A stretch of 64,000 bases of DNA. Origin: a virus. Made by a program: the position numbers and the translations under genes. Below are positions 18,003-64,000 of this stretch, one piece after another (position 1 is the first letter of the stretch; each line of letters begins with the position of its first letter). A model generated the notes under the pieces. It worked only from the letters and a program-made list of their open reading frames with translations. It made no database searches and was not told where the DNA came from. The stretch covers positions 1-64,000 of the IMG/VR virus record IMGVR_UViG_3300044786_000023, one strand, 5' to 3'.

Positions 18003-18022
18003 TTTTGTTCTCCTTTGTGAGG

Positions 18023-43894: not shown

Positions 43895-44043
43895 GCGTAA
43901 ACTGAAAAAGATGAAATGTCGGTATTATTTCTGTAGTATCTATAGGCCATTTAGCTTACAATTTGCGATATGGCTATCTGGGCTTAGTCGTGAACCTACC
44001 CAGGCCGAATTAGTTAGACTGGATTCATTACAGTAGAGGATGG

Positions 44044-44226: not shown

Positions 44227-44657
44227 TTCCTAATGAGAGATACTACCGAATCCTGGAGTGCATCCCTATTGCTTGCGTAGACGTTGCCATTATTGCCAGA
44301 GGCAGTGTCCTTCTAGTCAAGCGCAATGACCTCCCCGCTAAAGACGAATGGTGGCTGCCAGGTGGCAGGGTTTACAAAGGTGAGTTAATGAAGCAAACGG
44401 CTAAACGCAAAGCACTAGAGGAAGTGGGAATCGAGTGCCACATCGGGCCGATTATTCACACGGCTGAAACAATATTCCCTGATGGGCCAAATGGGATTCC
44501 TGTTCACAGCATTAACTCGTGCTTTATGCTTTATCCAGTGGGTGACTTTATAGTTAAGCTAGACAGTCATCACGATTCGTATGAATGGGCTAACCATATC
44601 TATGAAGGACTACATCCTTACGTGGTTAAATGTTTGTTGGGTGCGGGTATAGAATAA
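44220..44657 (+). CDS. Nudix hydrolase
   Basis: The Nudix box is GGRVYKGELMKQTAKRKALEEVGI. Confidence 0.8.
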   Translation: MVIPNERYYRILECIPIACVDVAIIARGSVLLVKRNDLPAKDEWWLPGGRVYKGELMKQTAKRKALEEVGIECHIGPIIHTAETIFPDGPNGIPVHSINSCFMLYPVGDFIVKLDSHHDSYEWANHIYEGLHPYVVKCLLGAGIE

Positions 44658-44707
44658 ATTTGGAATTTGTGGTAGAATAGATAGAGGCCTTTTCGCTTTT
44701 CAAAGCC

Positions 44708-44745
44708 AGCGGCGTTTCCCTTTGTAGGATTCGCCGCTTTTTTAT
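44708..44745 (+). terminator. intrinsic terminator
   Basis: AGCGGCG (44708-44714) pairs with CGCCGCT (44732-44738) and is followed by TTTTTTATTT. Confidence 0.5.
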
Positions 44746-44762
44746 TTATCAGAGGAATCAAT

Positions 44763-45170
44763 ATGAAAATAGGACTCGACTATGGTGGTGTTATCTCCTT
44801 TGCACTTGATGGATGGGCCAATACTCTCACTATAGCTAAAGGTAGGGGACATCAAATTTACCTTATCTCACATGCTCAAAAGGGCGAAGATTTACAATTG
44901 AGGCGCGACTATGCCAACTTGTTAGGTATAATAGATTTATCCTTCGCTGACTTACAGTCAGGTAGTCAAGAATCTGAGATAGCTAGACGTAAGGCCGAAC
45001 TGTGTCAAGAGCATGGAATCGAAATATTCATAGACGATGATCTACACAGAGTTGAAGCAGTCGGTAGAATGTGTAACAGATGTGCTGCTTTGTACATCCC
45101 TCAGAATCTGTGGCAGGTTGGACAAAGGCTAATAGAAGGACTGAATAGTGATCAAAACAACTATTCATAA
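44763..45170 (+). CDS. hypothetical protein (possibly HAD-like)
   Basis: Carries MKIGLDYGGV. The resemblance is weak. Confidence 0.45.
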   Translation: MKIGLDYGGVISFALDGWANTLTIAKGRGHQIYLISHAQKGEDLQLRRDYANLLGIIDLSFADLQSGSQESEIARRKAELCQEHGIEIFIDDDLHRVEAVGRMCNRCAALYIPQNLWQVGQRLIEGLNSDQNNYS

Positions 45171-45324
45171 TTGTGCTAGATGTGGACAGAACCATGAGGA
45201 TTTAGAGTTTTTACTATTTGAGAATCCAATAGAGGATACCGATGGCACAGTATGGAATTATTGGTCTGTATGTCCTACCAACAATGAGCCAATACTGCTA
45301 AAGGTAAAACAGATTGATGATTAG
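45148..45324 (+). CDS. 58-aa zinc-ribbon-like protein
   Basis: Not in the track. GTG start. Carries CARCGQ...CPTNNE. Confidence 0.3.
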   Translation: MIKTTIHNCARCGQNHEDLEFLLFENPIEDTDGTVWNYWSVCPTNNEPILLKVKQIDD

Positions 45325-46441
45325 CATCATAACCCCGGCCTACATAGATACTATTGAAAAACTTGAATGGCTTAACGAGATGTTAGCCTCTGTCCGCACT
45401 CAGACTCTAGCTGAATGGGAAGTCATCATTATGGATGACGCATCACCCATGCCGATAAACCTACATGACTACGATCCGCGAGTTCGCACCTTGCGAATGG
45501 TGAATCGTAGCGGCCCAGCCTTATGTCGAAATACGGCCGTAGCCTTAGCCAGATACCAGGCCATCCTGCCCATTGACGCCGATGACGTGCTGCCTTCACC
45601 TGATATTCTAAACAAGCTTTATCAAGCGTGGCTAGAGGATAAGACAAAGATAATTTATGGTGACTTGCAACGACTAGAGGTATTCGAGGGTGAGTGGAAG
45701 AGGGGCAGAGTACACGAACTACCTGAGTATAAATTCACCCGGCCCGACTTTGGTATCAATGGCACGGTTCTTGATCCGGCTGGCACAATACCTGTAAGCG
45801 GCTTGCACTCAATTGAAACTCATCACAAGGCGGGCGGCTGGAAAGCCGAATTAGATGCTGGCTTGGAGGATGTAGAATACTGGGTAGCAGCGGGTAAAGC
45901 TGGTTGTTGTGGTAAGCACATTAGTGAGATTGTTTTGCTTTATCGCAGGCACGATGAAAGCCGTAGCTCTCTTTTGAGACGAAATAAACAAGAAACGAAC
46001 ATGCGGAATCGAATCCGCCAAATGCACCAAGATGTATACGAAGGGAGATACCCCATGGGATGTTGCGGAGGTGGTGCGGCTTATGTGCCACCAGAAACTT
46101 ACAATCAAGCAAGCGTGTCAGCGCCACTTACTCTGGATAAATATCCGGCTAGTGAAAAGGTGTGGGTTGAATATACCGGACAGAGACAGGGGAGTTTTGG
46201 CGTGGTAGGCCAGTTCACTAATTATCCTTACACGGTAGACGGCCCTAGCCACAAGATAGAAGTTCATGTTAACGACTTGCCAAAGTTCCGGCATTCAGGA
46301 CGCGGCGTTGATTTCAGAATAGGTGTACCAGCGCCAAACGGCTATGCGCCTCCGGTGGTGACGGGGCCGCAACCGTTTGAGGCACAAGCGCCGGAACTGG
46401 CACAGATTCTACAGTTAGACGAGGTGGCACTTGCTGCTTGA
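45314..46441 (+). CDS. family-2 glycosyltransferase with an unrecognised C-terminal domain
   Basis: Carries ISIITPAY...VIIMDDASP...PIDADDV. Confidence 0.7.
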   Translation: MMISIITPAYIDTIEKLEWLNEMLASVRTQTLAEWEVIIMDDASPMPINLHDYDPRVRTLRMVNRSGPALCRNTAVALARYQAILPIDADDVLPSPDILNKLYQAWLEDKTKIIYGDLQRLEVFEGEWKRGRVHELPEYKFTRPDFGINGTVLDPAGTIPVSGLHSIETHHKAGGWKAELDAGLEDVEYWVAAGKAGCCGKHISEIVLLYRRHDESRSSLLRRNKQETNMRNRIRQMHQDVYEGRYPMGCCGGGAAYVPPETYNQASVSAPLTLDKYPASEKVWVEYTGQRQGSFGVVGQFTNYPYTVDGPSHKIEVHVNDLPKFRHSGRGVDFRIGVPAPNGYAPPVVTGPQPFEAQAPELAQILQLDEVALAA

Positions 46442-49155: not shown

Positions 49156-50664
49156 ATGGCTGATGAACTATTACTAAAACGCGGACAGGGCAACGTGGAT
49201 GTCCAAATAGGAGGGCCCGGCAATAACTGGCAGTACCTTTCAAGCTGTGCGGCTATGACTGGCCCCGAAGTACCCTTTGGTGACACTGAAACGCGCTGGT
49301 GTCAAGACCCTAAAGTGGCTGGCGCTTTTCGGCGCTCTACCAAAATCCGTACTGCTCCAGATTTAATCACTTTTGATCTAACAACCAAGCTGAATAAGAT
49401 CAATCATCTTAAGCGGCTCAACTGTCCGTTCTCGCAGCGCGCCCGCTATGCCATCTGCGGTGAGCGTGAGGATGTGGCGAATTACGATCCGCTCATGCTG
49501 AATTATTGCAGCGTTGAGTTGAACTCTAAGTCTTACGAGGACTTGGTCATTACCGATCCTGGCAATGAAGATGAGATTATCATCACAGCCTCAGCCAGTG
49601 CGGATTATGAGTACATAACTGAGAAGATTACACCGGCTCGCACTGGCTCAGCAGCTACACTTGGCGACCAGCCGATTAACGATATTGAGTTTTGCGACTC
49701 ACCCGATTGTGGCGGGTACTGTGGCGATCCTAGCGATGGTTGTACGATTCAATTCGGTGTAACTGATGCGGATACCGGCCCATATGCCGCACCAAATTTG
49801 GTCAAAGGCGTCAAGAATCTAAACACAGGTGCTATTACTTGGAGCAATCTTCCTATTCTTGGCATAAATGGTAATGTCGAGAATATCGAGTGTGCGGGCA
49901 AGCGCATCGGTGTTACCTCCTCTACCGATGCTGTCTTTGCGTATAATGACGACCCGAATCAGGATCAGGATGAATGGAACGTCGTCGCCTTAACTCGCAC
50001 GCCTAGCACGAACCATAACGCGCTATTTGCACGAACTAGCCGGGAATGGTGGTTAGCTTGTAATGGTGGATATATCCTTAAATCGGTAGACGGCGGTATA
50101 AGCTGGAATGAGGTTCACTCAGCAACTATCACCACGCAGAACATTCTCAGCGTTTACGCTTATGACAAAGACTTAATTGTTGCCGGCGGCGCTGTTGGCG
50201 TGATGCTAATTTCCAAAGATGGTGGGCAGACGTGGGCTGATATTAGCGAGGTTGCTACCACAGCAGCCAGTATCCTTGACATCGTTATTCCTCCCAACCG
50301 AACGAAAGAAATTTACGTCGGTACGAATAATGGGCGTATCTTCCGAAGCACGAATCAAGGCGATACATTTAGCCGTGTCTCATTTGATGGTGACAGTGTG
50401 GGCACCGTAGATGACATCGACTTTTGCGGGCCATGCGCCGGTGATGTGATGTTCATTCTACATAATGACGCTGGGCCACGTGCGCGTATTCTGCGTGATT
50501 TAAGCGGCGGCGCGGGCGGTAGTGACATCGAAATCATAATGGACTACACGCAAGTTATTGGCGGCGGGATTGACCTAAATGCGATGGCTTGCTGTGGCGA
50601 GAATGAGTTAATTGCGGCTGGTGAGAATCAAGGTGGATTCCCAGTGGTGGTTAGAGTATCGTAA
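49156..50664 (+). CDS. probable major tail protein with C-terminal BNR/Asp-box beta-propeller
   Basis: Positioned before the chaperone pair. The Asp-boxes are SVDGGISW, SKDGGQTW (50212-50235) and STNQGDTF. Confidence 0.55.
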   Translation: MADELLLKRGQGNVDVQIGGPGNNWQYLSSCAAMTGPEVPFGDTETRWCQDPKVAGAFRRSTKIRTAPDLITFDLTTKLNKINHLKRLNCPFSQRARYAICGEREDVANYDPLMLNYCSVELNSKSYEDLVITDPGNEDEIIITASASADYEYITEKITPARTGSAATLGDQPINDIEFCDSPDCGGYCGDPSDGCTIQFGVTDADTGPYAAPNLVKGVKNLNTGAITWSNLPILGINGNVENIECAGKRIGVTSSTDAVFAYNDDPNQDQDEWNVVALTRTPSTNHNALFARTSREWWLACNGGYILKSVDGGISWNEVHSATITTQNILSVYAYDKDLIVAGGAVGVMLISKDGGQTWADISEVATTAASILDIVIPPNRTKEIYVGTNNGRIFRSTNQGDTFSRVSFDGDSVGTVDDIDFCGPCAGDVMFILHNDAGPRARILRDLSGGAGGSDIEIIMDYTQVIGGGIDLNAMACCGENELIAAGENQGGFPVVVRVS

Positions 50665-51453: not shown

Positions 51454-54400
51454 TTGGCCCTTCCGACTGTCGGCTTGGAAGCCGTTATCGCCAACTTACC
51501 CAAATTTGAACAGGGCGCTAAAACCATCACGCAAGCCTATGATGGTATCAATACTAAGGCTGATGCTGTCGGTAAAGTTACTGAGCGCATGGGACTTAAG
51601 TTTGATGAGGCTTCTAATCGTTGGCGTACAGCATCGGGTAAGTTTGCCTCAAATGCTGAAATAGCAGCAGCGGGTATTAACAAAGCTAAAGATGCGGCTG
51701 ACAAAACGGGCAAGAGTTTTGTTGACTTGGGTAGTATAGCTGGCAAAGCTGGCGGTCAGTTAGTTGGCTTGGGCAGTCACCTACTTAGCCTGGGTGCTAT
51801 TGCTGGTGGCGCAGCCTTAGCTGGCGTCACTGCGCTAGGCGCTGGCTTAGCTACGTTTGCCGTGGCAGGTATCAATAAAGCCATTGATTTAGACGCGCAA
51901 ATGGCGACGATTGCCGCTACGATGAATACCACCAAAGAGGCAGTCGGGCCACTTAAGGATTTAATCTTAGACCTCGCCCTTGACCCTAATCTCACGGTAA
52001 ACACAACTCAGGCGGCTGATGCGATTCAGTTATTAGCACAGAACGGCGTGACGGCAGCAGAGATCATGGATGGTGCTGCGGCGGCAACCGTGGCTTTAGC
52101 TAACGCAACAGGGGCACAATTCAGCACAGCGGCGGATGTCGCATCAGGTGTTATGAAGGTATTCAACATTAGAGCAGAGGACATGGGAACGGCTATTGAC
52201 GGCATAACTGGCGTGGTCAATACGAGTAAGTTTACCATAGATGACTTTAGTCAAGCGTTTGCGGCAGCGGGTGGCGTAGCTGCTGAAATAGGCATCTCAT
52301 TTGAGGACTTCAGCGCGGTTATAGCAGGGACAGCGACTAGCTTTAATAGTGGCTCGGATGCAGGTACTAGCTTTAAGACGTTATTGCAACGTCTTTCTAA
52401 TCCAACAGATGAGAATAAGGATTTAATGGAACAATATGGTATATCCCTATTCGATGCTGAAGGTAAAATGAAGCCATTTGCAGAGGTAGTAGAATCCCTG
52501 AACGCTGCTTTTACTGGTTTAACCGACGCACAAAAAGCACAATTGGCGGCGCAGATAGGCGGCGCTGATGCGGCCAGAGAAGTATTAGCTTTAGCCGGTA
52601 TGACCAAAGATGAGTTTGAGAAGTTATCAGGTAATGTTAATGACAGTGGGCAAGCTTTTAGAAGCGCGGCAACTCGCGTTGATTCTGTCAAGGGTGCTTT
52701 TGAGATATTCAGAGGGATAGTTGAGGCTGTCCAGATTCAGGTAGGTGATAAATTCCTGCCGATTCTTAGGGGGGTGACGGTGGGATTCACTGACCTAGCA
52801 AGCAAAGCAGGGCCGGTGGTAGTAGATTTCTTTGGCAGGATAGCTGCCAAGATAGCTGACTTGACTAAACTCTTTGACGAGAGAGGGCTGGCAGGGGTAT
52901 TGGCCCGATTTGGCTTTACGGGTTCTCTCAAATTCTTTAGGGAATTAAGTGGACTCTTTAGCGACATAACTGGCAAAGTACCATCACTGGAAGGTATTGG
53001 AGTTATCTTTAAAGATTTGGCTAAACAGGTGTTCCCTTTTCTGACAAAGGGAGTGATTTTCATTCGTGATTTTATCGCAACCGTAACCGATTTATTTACC
53101 ACGTTTCAATCAGGTGGTTTATTTGGTTCTCGCTCTGGCTCATTTGGCAGTGTGGGACTATTGGCAGCGTTGGGTATATCACCTGATATTATAACAACAA
53201 TTCAAACTATCTTCGATTCCATTACTGAAGCCGCAAATGCTTTTATGTCAGGCGGCTTATTTGGCAGTGTAGGGCTAGCGGGTGGTGATGTCAGTCAAAC
53301 AGGCGGCATACTGGAAATGTTAGGATTATCCGATGAAGCTGTTATAGGAATCCAAAACATATTTTTAGGGATAGTCGCAGCGGTTACAAACTTTGGCACA
53401 ACCTGGCAAGCTATCTGGCCTACTATATCCGCATCGGCACAAACAGCATGGATTCTTTTACAGGGTATTTTTAATGGCATAGTTGCAACTTTAACTCCTA
53501 CTATTGAACAGCTTAAAGTCTCGTTTGCTGGTGTAGGTGAGACATTTGCCAATTTGGGTATTACATGGGCAACCGTAGGGCCAGCATTGCTTCAGTCAAC
53601 AGGTATTGTTTTTGCAGCGATTGGGGCAATTATACTAGGTGTTATCTCGGTAGTTGTCTCATTAGTTGCGGCGATAGGCGCTGGCGTAGCCTCTATGATT
53701 ACTGTATGGAACGAACTTGTACCCAGTGTCATTACTGCTGTTAGTAGTCTAATGGTATTCCTAACGGGTGTGACAGAGATATTTAGTGGCATTATTACGG
53801 GTGACTGGACTCAAATATCTCAGGGATTCCAAATAGCATGGGAAGGAATCGCAGCAGGATTACCTGCTATAATTGCATCTATTGTTACTATATTCACTGG
53901 ACTGGTAACAACGATTAGTAAAACCATTAGTGGCTTCGTTACGGCCATGATTGGATTCTGGACGGGCTTATCTGAGACTCTTATCGGGCATTCAATCATA
54001 CCCGATTTAATCAATGGAATACTGGACTTATTTACCAAAACAAAATGGCTTGATATTGGCAAGGGTATCATTGATGGCATTATTAAGGGAATTAAGGAGA
54101 ATTCGGCTAAGGTTCTTGAATTGATTAAATCCCTTATGGGAGACCTTCTGTCAACGGCTGCTACCGCTATTGGCTACGGCTCACCTGCCGCTGAGTTTAT
54201 CCCACTTGGCGCAAGTATAGCGGAAGGCTTGACAGCCGGTATCAATTCAGGTGCGGGTGGCGTTATGGCTGCAATGGGTAATATCACTCAAGCGACTTTA
54301 GATTCACTACTTGGTGTTACTCGTGGCCTGGCCTCGACTAATAATGCTATCGGCGCGGCGGCTGATGATGTTGAGAAATTTCTTGATAGTATTGGATTAA

Positions 54401-55335
54401 AGGGGTCGAAGGGCGATGCTACATTAAAGATACTCAAAGATACTTTCAGAGCAAATGCTGATGAGATTCTAGGCGCTACTGATAGGGCAGAGAAGTTCAA
54501 AGAGGTGCTTGCTCGTACCGGTGTCAATTGGGAAAGGATTTTTGTCGGTGGTAGTGTTAACCCATTCGCTGGCAAGGGCGGCGGCATACTCTCCTTTTTT
54601 ATCAATGCTTTTGATGAGCGCAAAACTGAACTAGAAAAAGCTCAACAGCGGATGTTTATTCAAGCTGGCAAAACCGCACTCAGCATTGGTAACAAATTAA
54701 ATGACATTGTACAGGGTAGTATTGACATACTTGATACCAGGGTCGAGACGTTGCAAGAGTTAGTTGATTCCGGTTTAGAGAGTGTTAATTTCGAGGGGAT
54801 GATTATCAGCGCGGTGCAAGCACAGGATTTACTCAATGCTGCGCTACAGGAACAAGCCGATATTCAAGATGACATTTTGCAACTTAAGCAGAATGAACAG
54901 AAGTTAAGCTTCCTTGAAAAGCAGCTTTCTTTAGTTGAGACGCTTAACGCTGCTGGCTTGAATGTACAGGATATTTTGGGTGGCATCTCGCTCGGTCTGG
55001 ATGCCAGTATACCGGACATGATAGAAGCCACAAACCGCTTGGTTATGGCGCTGATAAATCAAGTCAATGAGGATTTGCAACTTGGCTCACCTTCTAAACT
55101 TATGGCGAAAAAGGGCATGCAAACCGGACAGGGTTTTGTTGAAGGACTTATGGCGCAAATACCCAATATAACAAATGCAATGAAGCAAGCTATAGTAGGG
55201 CCAGTTAGTGGGCCGGTGCTGAGTGGTGGGAGTAGTTCACGAGTAGTTAATAACAACTTTAACATGGCAGTGAATACGGGCGCGAGTCCGCAAAATGTCA
55301 TGGCGCAATTTGAAATTGCAAGGGCAATGGCCTAA
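51454..55335 (+). CDS. tail tape measure protein
   Basis: 1293 aa, Ala/Gly-rich helical. TP901-type core motifs are present (TTQAADAIQLLAQNGVTAAEI). TTG start with SD GAGG. Confidence 0.9.
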   Translation: MALPTVGLEAVIANLPKFEQGAKTITQAYDGINTKADAVGKVTERMGLKFDEASNRWRTASGKFASNAEIAAAGINKAKDAADKTGKSFVDLGSIAGKAGGQLVGLGSHLLSLGAIAGGAALAGVTALGAGLATFAVAGINKAIDLDAQMATIAATMNTTKEAVGPLKDLILDLALDPNLTVNTTQAADAIQLLAQNGVTAAEIMDGAAAATVALANATGAQFSTAADVASGVMKVFNIRAEDMGTAIDGITGVVNTSKFTIDDFSQAFAAAGGVAAEIGISFEDFSAVIAGTATSFNSGSDAGTSFKTLLQRLSNPTDENKDLMEQYGISLFDAEGKMKPFAEVVESLNAAFTGLTDAQKAQLAAQIGGADAAREVLALAGMTKDEFEKLSGNVNDSGQAFRSAATRVDSVKGAFEIFRGIVEAVQIQVGDKFLPILRGVTVGFTDLASKAGPVVVDFFGRIAAKIADLTKLFDERGLAGVLARFGFTGSLKFFRELSGLFSDITGKVPSLEGIGVIFKDLAKQVFPFLTKGVIFIRDFIATVTDLFTTFQSGGLFGSRSGSFGSVGLLAALGISPDIITTIQTIFDSITEAANAFMSGGLFGSVGLAGGDVSQTGGILEMLGLSDEAVIGIQNIFLGIVAAVTNFGTTWQAIWPTISASAQTAWILLQGIFNGIVATLTPTIEQLKVSFAGVGETFANLGITWATVGPALLQSTGIVFAAIGAIILGVISVVVSLVAAIGAGVASMITVWNELVPSVITAVSSLMVFLTGVTEIFSGIITGDWTQISQGFQIAWEGIAAGLPAIIASIVTIFTGLVTTISKTISGFVTAMIGFWTGLSETLIGHSIIPDLINGILDLFTKTKWLDIGKGIIDGIIKGIKENSAKVLELIKSLMGDLLSTAATAIGYGSPAAEFIPLGASIAEGLTAGINSGAGGVMAAMGNITQATLDSLLGVTRGLASTNNAIGAAADDVEKFLDSIGLKGSKGDATLKILKDTFRANADEILGATDRAEKFKEVLARTGVNWERIFVGGSVNPFAGKGGGILSFFINAFDERKTELEKAQQRMFIQAGKTALSIGNKLNDIVQGSIDILDTRVETLQELVDSGLESVNFEGMIISAVQAQDLLNAALQEQADIQDDILQLKQNEQKLSFLEKQLSLVETLNAAGLNVQDILGGISLGLDASIPDMIEATNRLVMALINQVNEDLQLGSPSKLMAKKGMQTGQGFVEGLMAQIPNITNAMKQAIVGPVSGPVLSGGSSSRVVNNNFNMAVNTGASPQNVMAQFEIARAMA

Positions 55336-55350: not shown

Positions 55351-57936
55351 ATGCGAAAGTTACTAGCAGTTATTCTGTTTTTGATTCTAGTCTCTACCAG
55401 CTATGCACAAGAACCGCATAAAGTATATTTACCAATTATCATGAGACTTAAAGAAGATATAAAAAACTCGTGGCAGATAGTTAAGCCGATTAGCACAGTT
55501 AATAGCGTGCTTAACCCTTCCGCCGAATTAACCGGTAATTTTGCGGCTGTCGGTAGTGCTACTATCACCCGTGTTACTACCTATCAAAAGTACGGTCTCA
55601 ATTCCTACCGTGTGCAAACCACCGCCACTAATACGGGGCTATCGCTAACTACTGGCACGCTGACAAATGCCACTCATTGGATGACGGCGCGGATACGTGG
55701 CAGATTACCCCGCGAGTTACGCTTCTCAATTGGCCCTGATTCCAAGAAAGCCATCTTACTTGAAAAGATAGATGATGCCTGGGCTTTGTATGGTGCGCTG
55801 TTTGGTGCATCGGAATCGAATGGCAGGACAGCGGCAAGCATCACTCAGTTCGGCACAGGCAGTGGTGACTTTTATGTTGATGGGATTCAAGTCGAAGCAC
55901 AGCCAGACTGGACTACTTATGTTGACGGTACGCAAGAGGGATGCGCCTGGGATGGTGTGGATCACGCCAGCACCTCTAGCCGTAGTGGTGAAAGTAGCGC
56001 GGGCGGTATACCGCAGGACTTGTATCAAGAGTACAAGTTCTTTGTGACCAAGATAGTTGGCGCGGGTGCATCTACGCAAGAGTTAAACGTAGACTCCTAC
56101 GCACTTCTACCCGGTGGTGAGATGAACAGCTTAAAGGTTCAGTCTCGCCAGTTTACGCTTATCGGCAAGTTCATCACCGATACTGAACTTGAGTTACACG
56201 ATAACCGGCAAGAACTTATCAAGCTGCTAAAAACTAGCACGCCAGACCAACCGCTACGGTTGCGCTTTAACAATGCACGAGTAGAGAAAGAAATAAGCGT
56301 CTTTTATCAGGGCGGCTTAGAAGGTGACTTAGCCGCGTTCTATGGCAGTTTTGAGTCGATTGAGGATAATCAGTGGGGTGAGACAAAAGAGTTTGTAGAG
56401 AAAGCCGCGATTCAATTCTTAGCACCTGACCCGTATTGGTATGAGGTGGGGGAGAGTGCGGCGAGTCTGAATAATGCGTCAAGTAATGACTTATACACTG
56501 AACCGGATACAATTGATACTGCCACGTTTAGACTAGTGGCAGGTAGGTTAAGAAGCACCGGGCAATGGGATGCGTTAGGGCCGCCGAATGTGGCAGGAAC
56601 GTACTTCGCAGTTAATGCTATTGCTGAAGATGCTACTTATGTTTATATAGGTGGCAATTTCCAGAATTTCGATAATATAGCCAATGCTGATTATATTATT
56701 CGGTATAATAAACAGACAGGAGTTTATTCGGCTTTAAGCACGGGAATGGACGGCCCTGTTAATACTTTGGCTATTGGCCCGAACGGAATATTATATGCCG
56801 GAGGTAGCTTTACCTCCGCCGGAGGAGTAGCGAATACACTCCGTATTGCTTCTTGGGATGGTGTGACTTGGGCCGCTTTGGGTACAGGAGCAAATAATGT
56901 TGTTCGTGCTTTGGTTGTTGGTCAAAATGGGCTACTCTTCGCCGGAGGCAGCTTCACTACTATTGGCGGCGTTGCGGCTAATAGGATTGCTTCCTGGGAT
57001 GGTATAATATGGACTGCTTTGAGCACAGGAATGAATCAGCCTGTTTTTGCCCTGACCATTGCAGTAGATGGAATATTATATGCTGGAGGTAGCTTCACTA
57101 CCGTTGGGGGAGTAGCAACTAACTATATTACTTCCTGGAATGGTTCAGCCTTTTCATCATTGGGTAGTGGTATGAATAATACAGTCACTTCCCTAGCTGC
57201 CAATCCATCAGGAATTTTATACGCTGGAGGGATATTTACTTCTGCAGGGGGTAATGCGGCAGCACGTGTTGCCTCCTGGAATGGTACAGCATGGTTGGCA
57301 TTGGGAAGTGGGGCAGACGATGAGGTTCAGGCCCTAGCTATTGGTCAGGATGCAATGTTATATGCGGGAGGTCAGTTTACAACGGCAGGTGGTATTAATT
57401 TAGCTGACAGGGTAGCGCGTTGGAATGGCTATTCCTGGGCACACCTGGATCTCGACTTACCTGGGTCGCCTATTGTGACTGCTATTTTAGCTAGTAAGTA
57501 TGTTGACCCAGTTATCAAGCAAAAGTACAACTTATTCTTAGGATTCGATACCACTGGCACGGGCTATTTTGGTGGTAAATTTACCGTTACCAACAGTGGC
57601 AATGTGCCTGCTTTCCCCTTAATAATTTACTTCCGTTCAGGTGGTACATTCGCTATTGTTGAGACGCTGAAGAACGAACGAACGGGTAAAGAACTGCTGT
57701 TTGATTACTCTCTGTTGAGTGGCGAGACGCTAGGCATTGATTTAACACCGACTAACAAGACTATTATATCTAGCTTTTTCGGGCCTTCGTTGCGGGCGAT
57801 TCTGGCAAACTCGGACTTTGGCTCATGGGCTTTGCTACCGGGTGATAATGATGTGACAACGTTTGTCAGTGTAAGTGGTGGGCCGACGCTGACCGCATAT
57901 TTGCTGTGGCGAGATACCTATGACAGTTGGGATTAA
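55351..57936 (+). CDS. distal tail protein (Dit) with CBM-like domain and inserted six-blade beta-propeller
   Basis: Positioned after the TMP. The C-terminal Dit-like motif is TNSGNVPAFPLIIYF...LKNERTGKELLF. Six ~47-aa repeats of the form LYAGGSFTxxGGVxxxxIASWxGxxWxxLGxG span about 56650-57450. Confidence 0.65.
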   Translation: MRKLLAVILFLILVSTSYAQEPHKVYLPIIMRLKEDIKNSWQIVKPISTVNSVLNPSAELTGNFAAVGSATITRVTTYQKYGLNSYRVQTTATNTGLSLTTGTLTNATHWMTARIRGRLPRELRFSIGPDSKKAILLEKIDDAWALYGALFGASESNGRTAASITQFGTGSGDFYVDGIQVEAQPDWTTYVDGTQEGCAWDGVDHASTSSRSGESSAGGIPQDLYQEYKFFVTKIVGAGASTQELNVDSYALLPGGEMNSLKVQSRQFTLIGKFITDTELELHDNRQELIKLLKTSTPDQPLRLRFNNARVEKEISVFYQGGLEGDLAAFYGSFESIEDNQWGETKEFVEKAAIQFLAPDPYWYEVGESAASLNNASSNDLYTEPDTIDTATFRLVAGRLRSTGQWDALGPPNVAGTYFAVNAIAEDATYVYIGGNFQNFDNIANADYIIRYNKQTGVYSALSTGMDGPVNTLAIGPNGILYAGGSFTSAGGVANTLRIASWDGVTWAALGTGANNVVRALVVGQNGLLFAGGSFTTIGGVAANRIASWDGIIWTALSTGMNQPVFALTIAVDGILYAGGSFTTVGGVATNYITSWNGSAFSSLGSGMNNTVTSLAANPSGILYAGGIFTSAGGNAAARVASWNGTAWLALGSGADDEVQALAIGQDAMLYAGGQFTTAGGINLADRVARWNGYSWAHLDLDLPGSPIVTAILASKYVDPVIKQKYNLFLGFDTTGTGYFGGKFTVTNSGNVPAFPLIIYFRSGGTFAIVETLKNERTGKELLFDYSLLSGETLGIDLTPTNKTIISSFFGPSLRAILANSDFGSWALLPGDNDVTTFVSVSGGPTLTAYLLWRDTYDSWD

Positions 57937-58800
57937 ATGTCAAAGTTAAGTGTGATTATCCCAAGTAGAAATGAAAAGTTTCTACCCCAAACTATAGATG
58001 ACATATTCAAGAAGGCTACAGACCCTATCGAAGTCATCTGTGTACTTGATGGGTACTGGCCCAATCCTCCCCTGAAGGAATACCCGAATCTAATCACCAT
58101 TCACCGCTCAACGCCTCAAGGCATGAGAGCGGGTATCAATGCGGCGGCGGCTATTGCTAAGGGGAAGTACTTGATGAAATGCGACGCTCATTGCCTATTC
58201 GCTGAAGGTTTTGATGAAGTATTAAAAGCCGACTGTGCCGACAACTGGATTATCATTCCGCGTCGGTACAGCCTTGACGCTGAAAATTGGCAGCGATGTG
58301 AGGATAAAGAACCAATTGACGCGATGCATTATTTTTGGCCGTATGAACATCCCGACGATTTGGGATTGCACGGTAGACCTTGGATGGAGCGCAGCAGGGA
58401 GCGCAAGCATATCCCAATTGATGAGGATGTAACGTTTCAGGGTAGCTGTTGGCTTATGCACGCTGAACATTTTTATAAACGACTAGGGGGATTAAGCGAA
58501 GTTGGATTCCGTACTTTTATGGCAGAGCCGCAAGAGATCGGGCTAAAAACTCAGCTTGGGCATTGGGAAGGTAAAGTAATGCGGAACAAGAAAACTTGGT
58601 ACAGTCACCTCCATAAAGGCAAGACTTATGGGCGTATGTATTTTATGAGTTCGTCTGAACGCACAGAAGGCAATGCTTTTTCATTTGATTTCTTTTGGCG
58701 GAATCGATGGACAGAGCGGGCGCATGATCTCGAATGGTTAATTGATAAATTTCCACTTCAACCCGGTTGGCCTGAAAACTGGCGGGACTATGCTCATTAG
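57937..58800 (+). CDS. family-2-fold glycosyltransferase with DxH motif (ppGalNAc-T-like)
   Basis: Carries LSVIIPSRNE...VICVLDG...YLMKCDAHCLFAEGF. Confidence 0.75.
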   Translation: MSKLSVIIPSRNEKFLPQTIDDIFKKATDPIEVICVLDGYWPNPPLKEYPNLITIHRSTPQGMRAGINAAAAIAKGKYLMKCDAHCLFAEGFDEVLKADCADNWIIIPRRYSLDAENWQRCEDKEPIDAMHYFWPYEHPDDLGLHGRPWMERSRERKHIPIDEDVTFQGSCWLMHAEHFYKRLGGLSEVGFRTFMAEPQEIGLKTQLGHWEGKVMRNKKTWYSHLHKGKTYGRMYFMSSSERTEGNAFSFDFFWRNRWTERAHDLEWLIDKFPLQPGWPENWRDYAH

Positions 58801-59449
58801 CTTCTGTGTCCCCATTCATAACCGACTTCACGACCTAAAGATAACAATACCTTACCTCATTACGGCGGCCCAAGCCTCGCCCCCTATTGAGATTGTCGTT
58901 TTAGACTATGGCTCAACTGATGGTTTGGCAGACTACGCAAAAGGGCTAGATTGTGTCACTTATCACAGATACGAAAGTGATTATTTCCACAAAGCCCACG
59001 CCTTTAACTTGGTGATTCTAGTCTCAAAAGGCAAGTACTTTGTCCTTCTAGGCGCTGACGCTTACCCGCATAGAGATTACATAAAGACTATTCGTGAACT
59101 AATCACACAGGGTTGCATTTGGATGCGAGCCAGTGAGCTATGCGGGATTTTCGCTTGCCAGCACGGGGAATTTATTAACGCTGGCGGTTATGATGAACGG
59201 TTTGAATTTTACGGGCCGGAGGATAGGGATTTAGATTTACGCTTGCAACGGCGTGGTAGTGAGTTTGGATTAGTTCCTAACGGGTTAATGAGCGTCATTC
59301 CAACGTCCGATGAGGACAAAGTAAAAAACTTTCGTCTGAAATTATCCAAGCAAGGGATGGGCAGGTTAATGCGGCCTATCTTTGAAGAGAATATCGCCAA
59401 TGGCGTTTTAGTGGCTAATCAGGGGAGAGAGTGGGGGCAGTGGATCTAA
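58790..59449 (+). CDS. family-2 glycosyltransferase
   Basis: The track ORF starts at 58742. ATG 58790 gives MLISFCVPIHNR...IVVLDYGSTDG...LGADAYP...YGPEDRDLDLRL. Confidence 0.7.
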   Translation: MLISFCVPIHNRLHDLKITIPYLITAAQASPPIEIVVLDYGSTDGLADYAKGLDCVTYHRYESDYFHKAHAFNLVILVSKGKYFVLLGADAYPHRDYIKTIRELITQGCIWMRASELCGIFACQHGEFINAGGYDERFEFYGPEDRDLDLRLQRRGSEFGLVPNGLMSVIPTSDEDKVKNFRLKLSKQGMGRLMRPIFEENIANGVLVANQGREWGQWI

Positions 59450-61041
59450 GCGTACTTATCCCTAGCAGGAATGAGGAGTTCTTACTTAATACCGTTAATG
59501 ACGTGTTAGCCAACATTCAGGCTGATACTGAGATTATTTGCGTACTTGACGGAAGCTGGCCTATTGAACCAATCCCAGATAGCCCTCGCATAACCCTAAT
59601 TCATCACCCTACATCCATCGGCCAGCGTGCAGCAATCAATGAAGCGGCGCGGGTATCTACTGCCAAGTATGTAATGAAATTTGATGCTCATTGTGCTGTT
59701 GCCCCTGGTTTTGATAAGGTACTGCTAGAAGATATGCAACCCGATTGGACACAAGTACCCATCATGCGAAACTTACACGTATTCGACTGGGTATGTGATT
59801 GTGGGCATCGAATGTACCAGAGGCCAACGCCGGAGTCATGTCCAAATTGCAATGGACAAATGACAAAAGAGATAGTCTGGATTGCCAAGACTAATCCTCA
59901 AAGTAAAGCATATTGCTTTGATTCTACCCCTCACTTTCAGTACTTTGGAGAGTTTAGCAAGCGGCCTGAAGGCAAAGGCGACTTAACGGAGTCCATGAGC
60001 TTGCAAGGTTCATGCTTTATGATGACCAGAGAGAGATACCTAGAGTTGGAGGTATGCGACGAATCTATTGGCAGTTGGGGCAGTCAAGGAATCGAAGTCG
60101 CCTGTAAGACGTGGCTATCGGGTGGTAGGGTGATAGTCAATCATCGAACATGGTACGCACATCTGTTTAGGAAGTATGGCGATTTCGGCTTTCCGTATCC
60201 GTTAAGCGGTAAGGAAACGGAATATGCTAAAGAACAAGTTAGAGAGTTATTCTTTGAGAATAGATGGCCTAAGCAAATTAAGCCACTATCCTGGCTGGTT
60301 GAAAAGTTTTGGCCCGTACCAGGATGGACTGATGAGGACCTGAAACGAATAGCGCCAAGTAAAGCAGCAATTTATTATACCGACAATCGGCTCGATTCTA
60401 ACATAATGCAAGTTTGCCAGAATCAACTTAAGCAAAGCTTAAACGGTCACAAGCTGGTATCCGTCTCACTCAAACCACTAGACCTTGGCGAGAACATCAC
60501 ACTAGATTTAGAGCGCGGGTATCTAACTATGTTCAAGCAGATTCTGGCTGGCTTAGAGGCTTGCATGGCTGATGTCGTTTTCTTATGCGAGCATGACGTT
60601 TTGTACCACCCTTCACACTTTGATTTTACCCCACCTGATAGAACCAAGATTTATTACAACGCAAATGTATGGCACTTAAGAGTATCGGACGGTCACGCCG
60701 TTTATTACACGGCTAAAAGGACAAGCCAACTATGCGCCTATCGAGATGTACTAATCAGACATTATCGCAAACGTGTGGCCTTAGTTGAGCAAGACGGCTT
60801 CAGTCGCAAGATGGGTTTTGAGCCTGGAAGTCATAACCGCACTGAGCGAGTGGACGATCTGAAGTCTGATACTTGGCAGAGTGAGCATCCCAATGTGGAC
60901 ATAAAGCATGACCAAAATTTGACACCGGCTCGGTGGAAACAAGAGGCTTTTAGAGATAAAAGAAATTGCCAGAATTGGCAAGAGTCCGATGAGATACCCT
61001 ATTGGGGGGTAACTAAAAATATATTTATGGAGGTGATTTGA
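59431..61041 (+). CDS. family-2-fold glycosyltransferase with DxH motif plus a C-terminal domain; paralog of 57937
   Basis: Carries LSVLIPSRNE...IICVLDG...YVMKFDAHCAVAPGF. A Cys4 insertion (CDCGH...CPNC) is present. Confidence 0.75.
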   Translation: MGAVDLSVLIPSRNEEFLLNTVNDVLANIQADTEIICVLDGSWPIEPIPDSPRITLIHHPTSIGQRAAINEAARVSTAKYVMKFDAHCAVAPGFDKVLLEDMQPDWTQVPIMRNLHVFDWVCDCGHRMYQRPTPESCPNCNGQMTKEIVWIAKTNPQSKAYCFDSTPHFQYFGEFSKRPEGKGDLTESMSLQGSCFMMTRERYLELEVCDESIGSWGSQGIEVACKTWLSGGRVIVNHRTWYAHLFRKYGDFGFPYPLSGKETEYAKEQVRELFFENRWPKQIKPLSWLVEKFWPVPGWTDEDLKRIAPSKAAIYYTDNRLDSNIMQVCQNQLKQSLNGHKLVSVSLKPLDLGENITLDLERGYLTMFKQILAGLEACMADVVFLCEHDVLYHPSHFDFTPPDRTKIYYNANVWHLRVSDGHAVYYTAKRTSQLCAYRDVLIRHYRKRVALVEQDGFSRKMGFEPGSHNRTERVDDLKSDTWQSEHPNVDIKHDQNLTPARWKQEAFRDKRNCQNWQESDEIPYWGVTKNIFMEVI

Positions 61042-61042: not shown

Positions 61043-61300
61043 ATGGCAGTTTTACAGGATGTTGATAGATTTGATGTTTGGGCTGAAGCGATGCGTGAAT
61101 GGAGTAGGGAAGCGCAGACGGTTGGGGTAAATAAAGCCGATCTCAGGGTGGCAGTAAATGCTATCGACGATTGGGTAAATATAAACGCTTCCGCCTTCAA
61201 TGCGGCCATTCCGCAGCCGGCACGTGCTGCACTAACCGCACCACAAAAAGCATTGCTGCTCATGTACGTCATTCAAAAACGATCTGCGAAGGGGAACTAA
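61043..61300 (+). CDS. hypothetical protein
   Basis: Track ORF. Confidence 0.5.
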   Translation: MAVLQDVDRFDVWAEAMREWSREAQTVGVNKADLRVAVNAIDDWVNINASAFNAAIPQPARAALTAPQKALLLMYVIQKRSAKGN

Positions 61301-61303: not shown

Positions 61304-61798
61304 ATGACTACTACCCGATGTATAGGAACGCCCTATTCTGCTGAATTTCCAGCAGCTAATTTTCCGCAATTGCAACTGGTCAACCGTCGTCCAGTTTTAT
61401 CTTTTGATGCGGCCACAGATGAAACGACTTACTGGACCTTCGTCGCTTGGCAGGGGCTAACCGGCACAATGACTCTTATTATTAGTTACATGATGGCTTC
61501 TGCTGTAGCTGACGAAGTTGGCTTTCAGGCTCAAATTGAGGCCGTTACCGATGGAGACGCGACCGACCTTGACGCAACAACCTCATTTGATAGCGTCAAT
61601 AATTCAGCCTCTGTCACCGTACCGGCTACAGCCGGCTATATTGACCAAATTTCAATCACTATGACTAATCAAGACAGTATCGCAGTGGGGGATTATTTCC
61701 GACTTTCGGTGAATCGTGATGCGGATGGATCGGCCATCACCGATGATGCGACGGGGGACTGTCACATACTCGCAGTTGAATTGAGGGACGCAGCATAA
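61304..61798 (+). CDS. hypothetical virion protein
   Basis: Track ORF. Confidence 0.5.
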   Translation: MTTTRCIGTPYSAEFPAANFPQLQLVNRRPVLSFDAATDETTYWTFVAWQGLTGTMTLIISYMMASAVADEVGFQAQIEAVTDGDATDLDATTSFDSVNNSASVTVPATAGYIDQISITMTNQDSIAVGDYFRLSVNRDADGSAITDDATGDCHILAVELRDAA

Positions 61799-64000
61799 AT
61801 GGCAGTTCGCTTCAATGCGTCAGGTGAATACCTACAATTGACAAGCGGGGTATTCAATAATAATACCGCCTATTCGTACTGTTTTTGGTTTTTCTATCCG
61901 ACAACTTGGACCGCAAACAGGGTTGTGGTATCTGTTGATGCGGGTGTATATGATGCCAATTTTGATTTTGTCTTTACTCGCCCTGATGGATTTCTGGCTA
62001 TCCATGATAGTATTGGTGGATACGGTGAAAGCTCAAGCGCGTTCGCGGTAAACACTTGGTATCATTTGGCCGTTGTTCGCTCATCGGCCACAAATATAAA
62101 GTTGTATATCAATGGTGTTCTTGAAGCAACAGATACGGGGGATGTTTCGGCCCGGCCTGTGGCTACTCGGTTCACATTAGGCAGTCAAAGTGCCAGTCCA
62201 TACGACTCGTGGGATGGCCGGATGGCTTATTGTAAAGCCTGGACCGCAGAACTGACCGCTGCCGAAGTTTTACAGGAAATCTATGTAATCAGACCGGTCA
62301 AATTCGATAATCTTTATGGATTTTGGCCGCTCTTTCCTGGCGCGGCGGAACGACTGATTGATTACTCAGGCAACGGGCGCAATCTGACGGCTGGCGGCAC
62401 GCTAACCGATGAAGACCCGCCGCCGGTCAGCTGGGGAGCGGGTCTATCTTATTCTCAATTCGTAGCAGGTGGTAGCCCCAGTGCCTCAGTATCTCCCAGC
62501 GTTTCCCCTTCAGCCAGCGTCAGCCCGTCCGTTTCGCCTTCGGTCAGTCCCTCCGTCAGTGTTAGTCCGTCTGCCAGCGTAAGTCCGAGCGCTTCGATTT
62601 CGCCATCGGCATCCATCAGTCCAAGCGCATCTGTTAGCCCTAGTGTTAGCCCATCAATATCACCAAGCGCATCGGTTTCGCCCTCCGCTTCTGTCTCACC
62701 TTCAGTTAGTCCATCAATTTCTCCTTCTGCTTCAGTTAGTCCAAGTGCGTCGCTTTCGCCATCAGCATCCCTGAGTCCGAGTGCCAGTGTTAGTCCTTCG
62801 ATATCGCCTTCGGTATCTCCCAGTGCCAGTGTATCGCCGAGTGCCTCAGTAAGTCCGAGTGCTAGTGTCTCACCTAGTGTCTCGCCTAGTGTAAGTCCTT
62901 CTGCCAGTGTTAGCCCGTCAGCATCGGTATCTCCTTCAATCTCGCCATCGGCTTCGGTTTCGCCATCGGCGTCGGTTAGCCCGTCCGTTTCGCCATCCGC
63001 CTCAATCAGTCCTTCAGCCAGTGTTTCGCCTAGTGCTAGTGTTTCGCCATCTGTTAGCCCATCTGCCAGTATATCCCCCTCTGCCTCGGTTAGCCCGTCG
63101 GTTTCACCATCTGCTAGCGTGAGTCCATCTACTAGCGTCTCACCAAGTGTTAGCCCCAGTGCTAGCGTTTCGCCATCGGCGTCGGTATCGCCTTCAGCCA
63201 GTGTTTCACCTAGTGCTAGTTCACCTTCAGCCTCAATTAGTCCTTCTGCTAGTGTTTCCCCCAGTGCCAGTGTAAGCCCATCGGCTAGTGTCTCGCCTTC
63301 AGTTAGTCCATCTGCTAGCGCCTCGGCGTCGGTTAGTCCGAGTCCCAGTCCAGGGCCAGCCGGGACTGCTATTCGTATTTCTCCTGTTAGTAGAGTTGGT
63401 GCAGGTTCCTATGAGATATGGCTGACAAGTGACACGGGTTCACGGTTGGCACATCTGACTACTATCACGGCCCTTACCGCTTCACGGGTAGTCAATGGCG
63501 TAGGCTGGTTTGCGTTGAAAATGCCGCTGTCATTCAACATTAACATGATAGCTGTAGATAGGATGATTCAAATATGGCGACAACCACGCGGTGGGGTGAT
63601 GTCGCTGTGGCGGCCTTACTTTTTGCGCAAATGGGTATTTTCGACCGAGGGGAGTAAAGAAATTGTGACGATGGAGGGACCATGCGTAAACGATGTGCTG
63701 CGGCGTAGAATCATAGCGGCTTATAGTGGTTCAGCGCAAGCCAGTAAAACAGATTTTGCCGATGATATGATGAAGGAAGTTGTAACTCAGAGTATAGCCG
63801 ATGGAGTTGCACCTGTGCCAGCAGCAGGTACGCGGGTATGGAGTAATTTCAGCATACAAACTGATGCAAGCGCCGGGCCGACAATTACCAAGTCGTTTCC
63901 ATTTGATACGCTTCTAAGTGGCTCAGGCAACGGTGTACTACCCGTATTAGCGCAGGCAGCGCGCGAGGCTGGTACTGAGGTGTTTTTTAGTGTTGAACCT
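61799..64000 (+). CDS. LamG/ConA-like lectin domain, ~293-aa Ser/Pro repeat, Tal-like tail protein (3' end beyond window)
   Basis: Not in the track (no stop in the window). I translated it in frame from ATG 61799 to 64000 without a stop. WYHLAVVRSSATNIKLYINGVL is LamG-like. Residues encoded at 62474-63352 are SPS[AVI]S[VIL]/SPSV repeats. The C-terminal part (YEIWLTSDTGSRLAHL...VDRMIQIWRQP...) resembles siphovirus Tal/Gp37-like N-termini. Confidence 0.75.
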   Translation, partial: MAVRFNASGEYLQLTSGVFNNNTAYSYCFWFFYPTTWTANRVVVSVDAGVYDANFDFVFTRPDGFLAIHDSIGGYGESSSAFAVNTWYHLAVVRSSATNIKLYINGVLEATDTGDVSARPVATRFTLGSQSASPYDSWDGRMAYCKAWTAELTAAEVLQEIYVIRPVKFDNLYGFWPLFPGAAERLIDYSGNGRNLTAGGTLTDEDPPPVSWGAGLSYSQFVAGGSPSASVSPSVSPSASVSPSVSPSVSPSVSVSPSASVSPSASISPSASISPSASVSPSVSPSISPSASVSPSASVSPSVSPSISPSASVSPSASLSPSASLSPSASVSPSISPSVSPSASVSPSASVSPSASVSPSVSPSVSPSASVSPSASVSPSISPSASVSPSASVSPSVSPSASISPSASVSPSASVSPSVSPSASISPSASVSPSVSPSASVSPSTSVSPSVSPSASVSPSASVSPSASVSPSASSPSASISPSASVSPSASVSPSASVSPSVSPSASASASVSPSPSPGPAGTAIRISPVSRVGAGSYEIWLTSDTGSRLAHLTTITALTASRVVNGVGWFALKMPLSFNINMIAVDRMIQIWRQPRGGVMSLWRPYFLRKWVFSTEGSKEIVTMEGPCVNDVLRRRIIAAYSGSAQASKTDFADDMMKEVVTQSIADGVAPVPAAGTRVWSNFSIQTDASAGPTITKSFPFDTLLSGSGNGVLPVLAQAAREAGTEVFFSVEP
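62474..63352 (+). repeat. degenerate 12/18-nt coding tandem repeat (Ser-Pro-Ser-x-Ser-x)
   Basis: Read directly from the sequence. All six Ser codons are interleaved, so the protein repeat is far more regular than the DNA repeat. Confidence 0.8.

Follow-up and report, generated by a model that had tools for sequence, protein, structure and literature searches.

The window analyzed here, a 64,000-nucleotide stretch of viral DNA (positions 1 to 64,000 of IMG/VR record IMGVR_UViG_3300044786_000023), carries three glycosyltransferase genes within a tail operon, and we consider it reasonably probable that these form a phage cassette for protein O-glycosylation. As read from the sequence, GT1 (57937..58800) and/or the N-terminal domain of GT3 (59431..61041) would initiate glycosylation on a serine repeat in the tail-tip protein encoded downstream, and GT2 (58790..59449) together with the C-terminal domain of GT3 would extend the glycan. 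GT2 is here the name of a gene; the family of the same name is distinct from it and is written Pfam GT2.

Towards its 3' end the window carries a tail module of the siphovirus type, encoded on the + strand, and the features described below from the tape-measure gene to the tail-tip gene all lie on that strand. A preliminary description of the stretch had placed three glycosyltransferase genes between the distal tail protein gene (Dit, 55351..57936) and the tail-tip gene (61799.. past the window end). The three genes are indeed co-directional and all score above the PF00535 cut-off of 23.3 bits, with 54 bits for GT1, 46.2 bits for GT2 and 57.8 bits for GT3. The count of three genes stands, but GT3 holds two GT-A domains, making four GT-A domains across the three genes, and GT3 and the tip gene are not immediate neighbors but are separated by two small open reading frames (ORFs). 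The Dit stop at 57936 abuts GT1, GT1 and GT2 overlap by 11 nt, and GT2 and GT3 overlap by 19 nt. Promoter-like and terminator-like sites were no more frequent than expected by chance when compared with shuffled sequence. With overlapping or abutting genes from Dit to the tip gene and no excess of promoters or terminators, the arrangement looks like one late operon. The same order, with tape measure protein, Dit, GT1, (GT2), GT3 and tip protein, is found in L001, L002 and L005, which are close relatives.

GT1 and GT3 resemble polypeptide GalNAc-transferases

GT1 encodes a 287-aa protein of the GT27-like DxH type, predicted to be a soluble GT-A glycosyltransferase, while GT3 has a GTG start and encodes 536 aa. 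The N-domain of GT3 (residues 1-310; 59431..60360) is a GT27-like GT-A domain by its sequence, profile and model matches. It is 34% identical to GT1, and the two match each other reciprocally at E ~1e-44, so the proposal that 57937 and 59431 are paralogs holds. The motif (K/M)(C/F)DAHC, which had been noticed in place of DxD, is found in both proteins, as MKCDAHC in GT1 (DAHC at 58183-58194) and as MKFDAHC in GT3 (DAHC at 59683-59694).

A resemblance to the polypeptide GalNAc-transferases (ppGalNAc-Ts, family GT27) had been suggested on the basis of this motif, and it is borne out by sequence, profile and predicted structure, each of which gives ppGalNAc-Ts as the best matches of GT3 in the PDB. 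A phmmer search with GT3 returned 16 PDB matches, all of them polypeptide GalNAc-transferases (best E 1.3e-5); 14 of these, including the best, are named ppGalNAc-T, and the others are GalNAc-T7 and Toxoplasma GalNAc-T3 (TgGalNAc-T3, deposited as "Glycosyl transferase"). When a profile of 45 GT3 family sequences was used instead, the top 12 matches were ppGalNAc-Ts, with E values from 6.3e-11 to 5e-7. An AlphaFold model of GT3 made from the 45-sequence alignment (mean pLDDT 90.9) was compared to the PDB by Foldseek, and the top 33 matches were again all ppGalNAc-Ts (E 2.5e-15 to 9e-14), although identity in these structural alignments is only 16-19%. The next hit was the two-domain K4 chondroitin polymerase (K4CP), aligned over both halves of GT3. 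This ranking was computed for GT3; GT1 is its paralog and has a weak direct PDB match (E 0.13). Best hits to lipid-carrier Pfam GT2 enzymes with no similarity to polypeptide transferases, which the preliminary description had held would speak against its proposal, were looked for, and the top matches were polypeptide transferases.

Several elements can be followed through the alignments. The DAHC of GT3 lies opposite LDAHCE of the ppGalNAc-Ts and aligns with the DAHC of both GalNAc-T1 and TgGalNAc-T3, and the DAHC of GT1 aligns with that of TgGalNAc-T3. At the Gal/GalNAc-T motif (WGGENxE ... W.CGG), the GT3 N-domain has WGSQGIE...W.SGG where the ppGalNAc-Ts have WGGENLE...W.CGG (WGSQGIEVACKTWLSGG aligned with WGGENLEISFRIWQCGG); GT1 reads EPQEIGLKTQLG at this site and keeps only the Glu and a few other positions. 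Around the distal His, WYAHLFR of GT3 corresponds to VGHVFR, and at the C-terminal end of the GT3 N-domain PLSWLVEKFWP corresponds to PFSWYLENIYP.

In the family alignments, D83, H85, C86 and H224 are invariant across 32 GT1 family members, and D85, H87, H244, C122, C137 and C140 are invariant across 45 GT3 family members. Both paralog families thus keep the Asp, His and Cys of DAHC, together with the distal His, without exception. Alignment to the ppGalNAc-Ts suggests that the D-x-H and the distal His would serve as Mn2+ ligands in GT1 and GT3 as they do in those enzymes, the predicted ligands being D83, H85 and H224 (58606-58608) in GT1 and D85, H87 and the invariant H244 (60160-60162) in GT3. 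A zinc-ribbon-like insertion with four Cys (CDCGH...CPNC, 59794-59850) is conserved across the GT3 family and absent from GT1, and no counterpart of it was found in ppGalNAc-Ts in HMMER alignments.

A ricin-type (CBM13) lectin domain gave no Pfam match in either protein; GT1 ends after the catalytic domain, and the C-terminal half of GT3 is the second GT-A domain. Likewise, a Kyte-Doolittle scan revealed no type II membrane anchor in GT1 or GT3. Since the lectin domain and the membrane anchor are missing, we class these proteins as GT27-like and not as GT27 members. No hydrophobic or membrane segment is present in GT1, GT2 or GT3 (maximum Kyte-Doolittle mean over 19 residues of 0.66 for GT1 and 1.44 for GT3), which predicts soluble cytoplasmic enzymes that would meet phage proteins rather than lipid-linked acceptors at the membrane. 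Lipid-carrier Pfam GT2 enzymes of the GtrB/DPM1-like kind were considered for GT1-GT3 and rejected on this ground and because all NCBIfam matches fell far below cut-off.

Homologs of both paralogs are numerous in metagenomes. Among 8000 candidates scored, 6113 were GT3 homologs at E <= 0.001, of which the best 120 are 46-100% identical to GT3 and mostly full-length, and about 1960 GT1 homologs were found. A comparison with the viral structure library gave, as the best matches, uncharacterised proteins from tailed phages that are uncultured. Against 50,697 GenBank phage records, megablast of positions 40000-64000 and tblastn of full-length GT3 at E <= 1e-5 each returned nothing; at E <= 0.1, tblastn with GT1 and with the GT3 N-domain each gave a single short, marginal match to a fecal phage record without annotation.

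The tail-tip protein and its serine repeat

The tail-tip ORF is made up of Laminin_G_3, serine-repeat and Sipho_Gp37-like parts. The N-terminal Laminin_G_3 (concanavalin-like) domain (61799..62269; PF13385, E 8.9e-19, residues 8-157) is followed by the repeat (62471..63358) and by a conserved Sipho_Gp37-like domain (63401..64000) that runs off the window end and matches phrog_538, a minor tail protein. The full-length tip ortholog of L001 matches PF14594 Sipho_Gp37 at E 1.3e-17, and the tip protein matches those of L001, L002 and L005 by phmmer at E about 1e-100. The tip proteins of L001 and L002 have unrelated N-domains at the position of Laminin_G_3, and this variable N-terminal end is presumably distal or receptor-binding.

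The preliminary description had put the Ser-rich repeat at ~290 aa, close to the 300 aa found here, of which 147 are Ser (49%) in strict alternation. The repeat consists of SPSASV, SPSV and SPSASI units and is the proposed acceptor of the cassette. At the DNA level, the six Ser codons are all in use and well mixed, and no more than three short arrays were picked up by Tandem Repeats Finder, indicating that the periodicity is kept at the protein level; DNA slippage was ruled out as the origin of the repeat on the same evidence. In L001, L002 and L005 the repeat is shorter, at about 82-102 aa, and the repeat type and C-domain are kept while the N-domain differs. The repeat partly matches NCBIfam serine-rich protein and Clf/Sdr models. 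No other Ser/Thr-rich segment comparable to it occurs in any protein of the 64-kb window.

Serine-repeat proteins co-occur with GT3 homologs

The preliminary description had suggested an enzyme/substrate cassette from the position of the genes, and this idea gains strong comparative support from the frequency with which GT3 homologs and Ser repeats occur together. A total of 111 GT3-homolog loci were assembled, 25 from IMG/VR, 80 from species-representative genomes and 6 from contig look-ups, with GT3 identity of 46-88% in the two collection scans. As a control we used 134 random IMG/VR loci (1.18 Mb) from two random-oligonucleotide samples, which cover all kinds of phages and replace a terminase-based control of 7 loci. 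A protein was counted as carrying the repeat if at least 12 of 15 alternate positions per 30-residue window were Ser, with at least 30 residues covered. By this measure, repeat proteins were found in 73 of the 111 GT3 loci and in none of the 134 random loci (Fisher p = 2e-34, a test that overstates independence because the loci are phylogenetically related).

The repeat ORFs are also placed in a consistent manner. All 97 are on the strand of the glycosyltransferase genes and 83 of them lie downstream of GT3, with a median gap of 484 bp to the nearest downstream repeat ORF. Where at least 3 kb of downstream flank was available, a downstream repeat ORF was present in 55 of 70 loci, or in 58 of 70 when upstream repeat ORFs are included. 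When GT3 sequences were clustered at 70% identity, 26 of 34 clusters contained a positive locus. Genes of the GT1 type and the GT3 N-domain type occur together in nearly all loci with enough flank, and the GT3 C-domain is often a separate, duplicated ORF in these loci. The repeat units themselves vary (SPSASV, SPSISP, SESASE, SSSPSS), with Ser at alternate positions as the constant element.

The proteins that carry the repeats are diverse, and their domains include Gp37-like, DUF2460 and Laminin_G_3. Their 148 non-repeat segments fall into 85 BLAST clusters, which indicates that inherited synteny with a single gene family does not account for the link between GT3 and the repeat. The family of the neighbor changes, but it stays adjacent, in the same order and on the same strand, which is the pattern expected of an enzyme and its substrate motif.

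One of the loci, L132, has a 1650-aa + strand ORF at 14259-19208, of which 1140 residues are alternating-Ser repeat; this ORF is uncalled in the public annotation, where opposite-strand genes are called instead. Such reverse-strand miscalls suggest that Ser-repeat proteins are probably systematically mis- or under-annotated.

GT2 and the C-terminal domain of GT3

The GT3 C-domain (residues 311-536; 60361..61041) is a second GT-A domain and belongs to a family without annotation. It had no match in Pfam, but when modelled alone it gave a GT-A fold with a pLDDT of 94.8. Its matches in the PDB by Foldseek were remote, with heparosan synthase 2 as the best and ppGalNAc-T1/T2 and SpsA also among them (E 1e-6 to 1e-4). 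The family alignment shows an invariant E387-H-D389 motif (60589-60597). At least 1477 homologs of the domain were found, none with a recorded Pfam domain or an informative source name. The members are about 230 aa in length and often duplicated two to four times per locus, and stand-alone C-domain ORFs were observed in L007, L012, L013, L015, L022, L024 and L026.

GT2 is a GT-A glycosyltransferase of 219 aa when counted from its ATG; the program-made ORF list starts it at a TTG at 58742. Besides PF00535 it matches PF10111 (33.2 bits) and Glyco_transf_7C (PF02709; residues 118-164, 28.0 bits versus a cut-off of 23). The beta-4-GalT-like motif reported earlier for this third gene is thus present, as FYGPEDRDLDLRL at 59207-59245, found by a motif check and lying within a match above the PF02709 cut-off. 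The PDB matches of GT2 are to K4CP and to this same motif in TgGalNAc-T3. No model matched a GT7-type N-terminal domain in GT2, whose N-terminal half matches PF00535 and K4CP; it is therefore a Pfam GT2-type enzyme with a 7C-type motif and not a GT7 member. The gene is found in the relatives L002, L003, L005, L011 and L012 and is missing in L001. Within the cassette GT2 is an accessory gene, and its product probably extends the chain.

Proposed mechanism and alternative explanations

From the folds, motifs, homology ranking, gene order and operon structure, and co-occurrence described above, we infer catalysis, a donor sugar, an initiating enzyme, an order of action and an acceptor as follows. 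GT1, GT2 and GT3 would be soluble and cytoplasmic, and would be produced alongside the tail proteins at a late stage of infection. As GT-A domains of the ppGalNAc-T (GT27) type, GT1 and/or the GT3 N-domain would bind Mn2+ via D-x-H and the distal His and move the first sugar from a nucleotide-sugar to Ser hydroxyls of the (SPSxSV)n segment of the tip protein before virion assembly. GT2, with its Glyco_transf_7C-type motif, and the GT3 C-domain, with its EHD motif, would then extend the glycan, and the island of glycosyltransferase (GT), RmlD and CmcI-like genes at 29.8-46.4 kb may supply additional sugars as well as O-methyl groups. The predicted product is a stalk resembling mucins or the serine-rich repeat proteins of bacteria, with the variable lectin-fold domain at its N-terminal end and the conserved domain of the Gp37-like type at the other; glycosylation would stiffen and extend this stalk and protect it from proteases.

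A number of observations weigh against this scheme. The Gal/GalNAc-T motif has diverged in GT1, both GT1 and GT3 are without the lectin domain and anchor of real ppGalNAc-Ts, and retaining or inverting chemistry is not readable from sequence. GT-like genes in the window well outnumber what a single acceptor would seem to call for, which makes other targets probable. All loci in the co-occurrence analysis were found via GT3 and hence are not independent, and no repeat protein was seen in the available DNA of 12 of the 70 GT3 loci with at least 3 kb of downstream flank. The search was also run in reverse, starting from the repeat: at least 599 IMG/VR stretches were obtained, and two loci (L133 and L134) passed a low-complexity-filtered tblastn. 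Within 10 kb of the repeats in these two loci no GT1 or GT3 homolog was found, so alternating-Ser linkers can exist without an adjacent GT1/GT3 enzyme and the association is perhaps not obligatory. The L133 repeat protein (7076-13957) comes from a fragment of a myovirus in which a tail sheath and a Peptidase_S74 chaperone domain are also present, and that of L134 (7031-11275) is among metabolic genes of an 87-kb phage.

Three other explanations were compared with the tail-tip cassette. It is possible, but in our view unlikely, that virion proteins are glycosylated with their main acceptors elsewhere, on the capsid, on the tail tube or on the Dit and BNR proteins with their propellers, and that the Ser repeat is an unmodified flexible linker. 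Repeat-bearing fibre proteins without adjacent GT1/GT3, as seen in the reverse search, and the presence of about ten GT-like genes in the window, more than one acceptor seems to require, are both in keeping with this, and the acceptors characterised in mycobacteriophages are C-termini of capsid and tail-tube proteins (PMC12619734, citing Freeman et al. 2023). The tight, directional adjacency of GT3 and repeat over 85 carrier-domain clusters is, however, hard to explain if the repeat is irrelevant, and the other proteins of the window offer no Ser/Thr-rich segment of this kind.

We regard as improbable that the three enzymes are host-directed auxiliary or conversion enzymes that modify an envelope glycan or surface protein of the host, blocking superinfection or altering attachment, and not the virion. 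Many phage genes of the Pfam GT2 family act in this manner, the Gtr-type O-antigen conversion genes being one example, and phrog_841 ("GtrB-like") weakly matches another GT of the window; one of the homologous loci (L089) is an integrated prophage, and papers on Patescibacteria phages read sugar-biosynthesis genes as auxiliary metabolic genes (PMC12911398). GT1, GT2 and GT3, however, are without membrane segments, their best matches are polypeptide transferases and not lipid-carrier Pfam GT2 enzymes, and their genes are inside a tail operon and linked to repeat-carrying tail proteins.

That the GT family and Ser linkers are merely traits of one large phage clade, possibly of Patescibacteria phages, with the enzymes acting on something unrelated, for instance DNA bases or small molecules, is quite improbable: the positive loci do all come from GT3 homology, and 45 of the 80 genome-derived loci were binned with Patescibacteria while the random controls came from all kinds of phages, but GT3 identities go down to 42-50% and most neighbors show no detectable homology, yet they keep their strand, their order and their closeness to GT3, which is typical of functional coupling, and the fold match is to polypeptide transferases.

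Comparison with known glycosylation systems

To our knowledge, virion glycosylation by phage-encoded enzymes has been shown in mycobacteriophages only. Two papers that cite Freeman et al. 2023 describe mycobacteriophages as glycosylating virion proteins with their own glycosyltransferases (PMC12363180, PMC12619734), and one of them gives the C-termini of capsid and tail-tube subunits as the acceptors (PMC12619734). As far as it is described there, that system (Che8 gp108-110, Corndog, Myrna) is like the proposed cassette in that phage-encoded glycosyltransferases act on the phage's own structural proteins. The Che8 glycosyltransferase genes are at the right end of the genome, whereas those of the window are inside the tail operon, and the Che8 capsid and tail-tube subunits have short ends (...KTGS and ...SDGS), in contrast to the long internal Ser repeat of the tail-tip protein. 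GT1 and the GT3 N-domain were considered as members of the Che8 gp108-110 system and rejected, as the tblastn searches of the GenBank phage records showed no detectable homology to the mycobacteriophage enzymes and hhalign comparison of the profiles gave probabilities of 0.2-1.8% and nothing beyond the generic GT-A fold.

The serine-rich repeat proteins (SRRPs) of streptococci and staphylococci are described as O-glycosylated on their repeats (PMC6973325), and staphylococcal SD repeats as modified by the glycosyltransferases SdgA and SdgB (PMC3794999). In the accounts given there, the glycosylated repeat is a stalk that presents a binding domain (PMC6973325, PMC3794999), and we propose the same role for the phage repeat. 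Gram-positive SRRPs (GspB, Fap1, SraP, PsrP; with GtfA/GtfB) and SD-repeat proteins have long repeats with Ser at every second position, as the phage repeat does, and SESASESAS units occur in related phage loci. In these systems, as here, the glycosyltransferases are encoded beside the substrate gene. The initiating enzymes of SRRP systems have the GT-B fold (GT4). GtfA/GtfB therefore differ from the four domains beside the phage substrate gene, all of which are GT-A. The SRRP carrier is a bacterial adhesin and the carrier here a virion tail protein, for which accessory SecA2/SecY2 export and cell-wall anchoring would not be expected, as it is assembled in the cytoplasm.

The eukaryotic ppGalNAc-Ts, which start mucin-type O-glycosylation, have in common with GT1 and GT3 the GT-A catalytic domain with D-x-H-C for DxD and a distal His. 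They further share with the GT3 N-domain, at its C-terminal end, the motif PxSW(Y/L)(L/V)E..(Y/W)P; the Gal/GalNAc-T motif is recognisable in the GT3 N-domain but diverged in GT1. As in a mucin domain, the proposed acceptor is a Ser/Pro-rich repeat, but it is almost purely Ser, with 2 Thr in 300 residues. The ppGalNAc-Ts have a lectin domain, anchor and stem, while the phage enzymes would be cytoplasmic, and GT3 has the zinc-ribbon insertion and a second GT-A domain. Two tandem GT-A domains are a feature that GT3 shares with K4CP and Pasteurella heparosan synthase 2 (PmHS2): K4CP aligns over 560-573 columns of the GT3 model and is matched in sequence by GT2, and PmHS2 is the best structural match of the C-domain. 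Identity to these polymerases is, however, 8-12%, there is no sign of polysaccharide polymerisation, and the GT3 N-domain is clearly closer to the ppGalNAc-Ts.

In literature searched for phage GT27, phage polypeptide GalNAc-transferases and serine-rich or O-glycosylated tail fibres, such a cassette is not described. That phages can glycosylate their own virions is known in general; the enzyme family, the acceptor type and the wide distribution in uncultivated phages predicted here would be new. If the cassette works as proposed, virion glycosylation would extend to a very abundant, uncultivated phage group with enzymes unrelated to those of mycobacteriophages, and the long Ser-repeat stalks of tail tips and fibres would be a new type of acceptor. 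Two large protein families now labelled "GT2" or "hypothetical protein" would gain a function, the ppGalNAc-T-type catalytic domain, usually treated as eukaryotic, would have close phage relatives, and the phage enzymes might be a source of cytoplasmic, soluble polypeptide O-glycosyltransferases for glycoengineering. Homologs number in the thousands in metagenomes and many are binned with Patescibacteria/CPR (candidate phyla radiation). A broader reading, possible but doubtful, is that tailed phages hold a large clade of GT27-like polypeptide glycosyltransferases, so far under no informative name, which, with the unannotated GT-A family, build mucin-like glycan brushes on the alternating-Ser stalks of tail tips and fibres and are the closest non-eukaryotic relatives of the mucin-type initiators; if so, this would bear on the origin of mucin-type O-glycosylation.

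Upstream sugar genes, genome and host

Within the structural region of the window, a run of about 17 kb (29824-46441) is rich in sugar-related genes. This upstream island has at least six GT-like ORFs, at 29824, 31634, 33487, 36583, 41904 (Pfam GT2 plus Glyco_trans_1_2) and 45314, an RmlD homolog at 34940, a DUF5662 gene at 35800, a NUDIX gene at 44220, and four CmcI-like (rhamnosyl O-methyltransferase-type) methyltransferases at 38217, 38827, 39405 and 40965. The gene set suggests a complex, possibly methylated deoxy-sugar glycan. Similar sugar gene sets occur in the distant GT3-homolog loci L004, L131 and L132.

The large terminase gene is at 20052. In a close relative, IMGVR_UViG_3300018063_000001 (L113/L114; 74,128 bp), the terminase is 91-95% identical and its match is split across the contig ends, as would be seen if the roughly 74-kb genome were complete and circularly permuted; the window would then make up the greater part of a genome of this kind. 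Of the 80 genome-derived loci, 45 were binned with Patescibacteria/CPR and 24 with "uncultured Gammaproteobacteria/Pseudomonadales". L089, on a 568-kb contig of a Saccharibacteria metagenome-assembled genome (CAZXUH010000001.1), has a GT1/GT3 cassette and two Ser-repeat proteins, one with Laminin_G_3. These genes lie between tail-fibre genes and an endolysin and tyrosine integrase, and the locus is an integrated prophage in a CPR genome. It is a clue to the host of the phage group.

Other features of the tail module

Between GT3 and the tip gene are two small ORFs without a family match, one of 85 aa (61043..61300) and one of 164 aa (61304..61798) that adjoins the tip gene upstream. In L001 and L002 there is no ORF at the position of the first, and the tip gene begins at the GT3 stop. 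An identical JGI contig is publicly annotated with the same products of 219 aa, 536 aa and 85 aa as found here.

The tape-measure ORF (51454..55335; 1293 aa) precedes the gene for the Dit-like protein (861 aa), which forms the upstream boundary of the cassette and is assigned by PHROG phrog_33 (Dit, E 5.8e-10) with weak Pfam matches to SPP1_Dit, Sipho_tail and RIFT. The start of this ORF (55351-55410) encodes a signal-peptide-like hydrophobic stretch, MRKLLAVILFLILVSTSYA, with a Kyte-Doolittle mean of 1.72, a feature not usually met in distal tail proteins. Translation either begins at a later start codon or yields an N-terminus with some special function. Beta-propeller-type domains were observed in two proteins of the tail module. 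One is the Dit-like protein itself (55351-57936), which has a beta-propeller-like insert with Rax2 and Reg_prop matches. The other is a 502-aa protein encoded upstream of the tape measure (49156-50664) that matched BNR, Sortilin and PSII_BNR models. These two propeller regions may act as carbohydrate-binding decorations.

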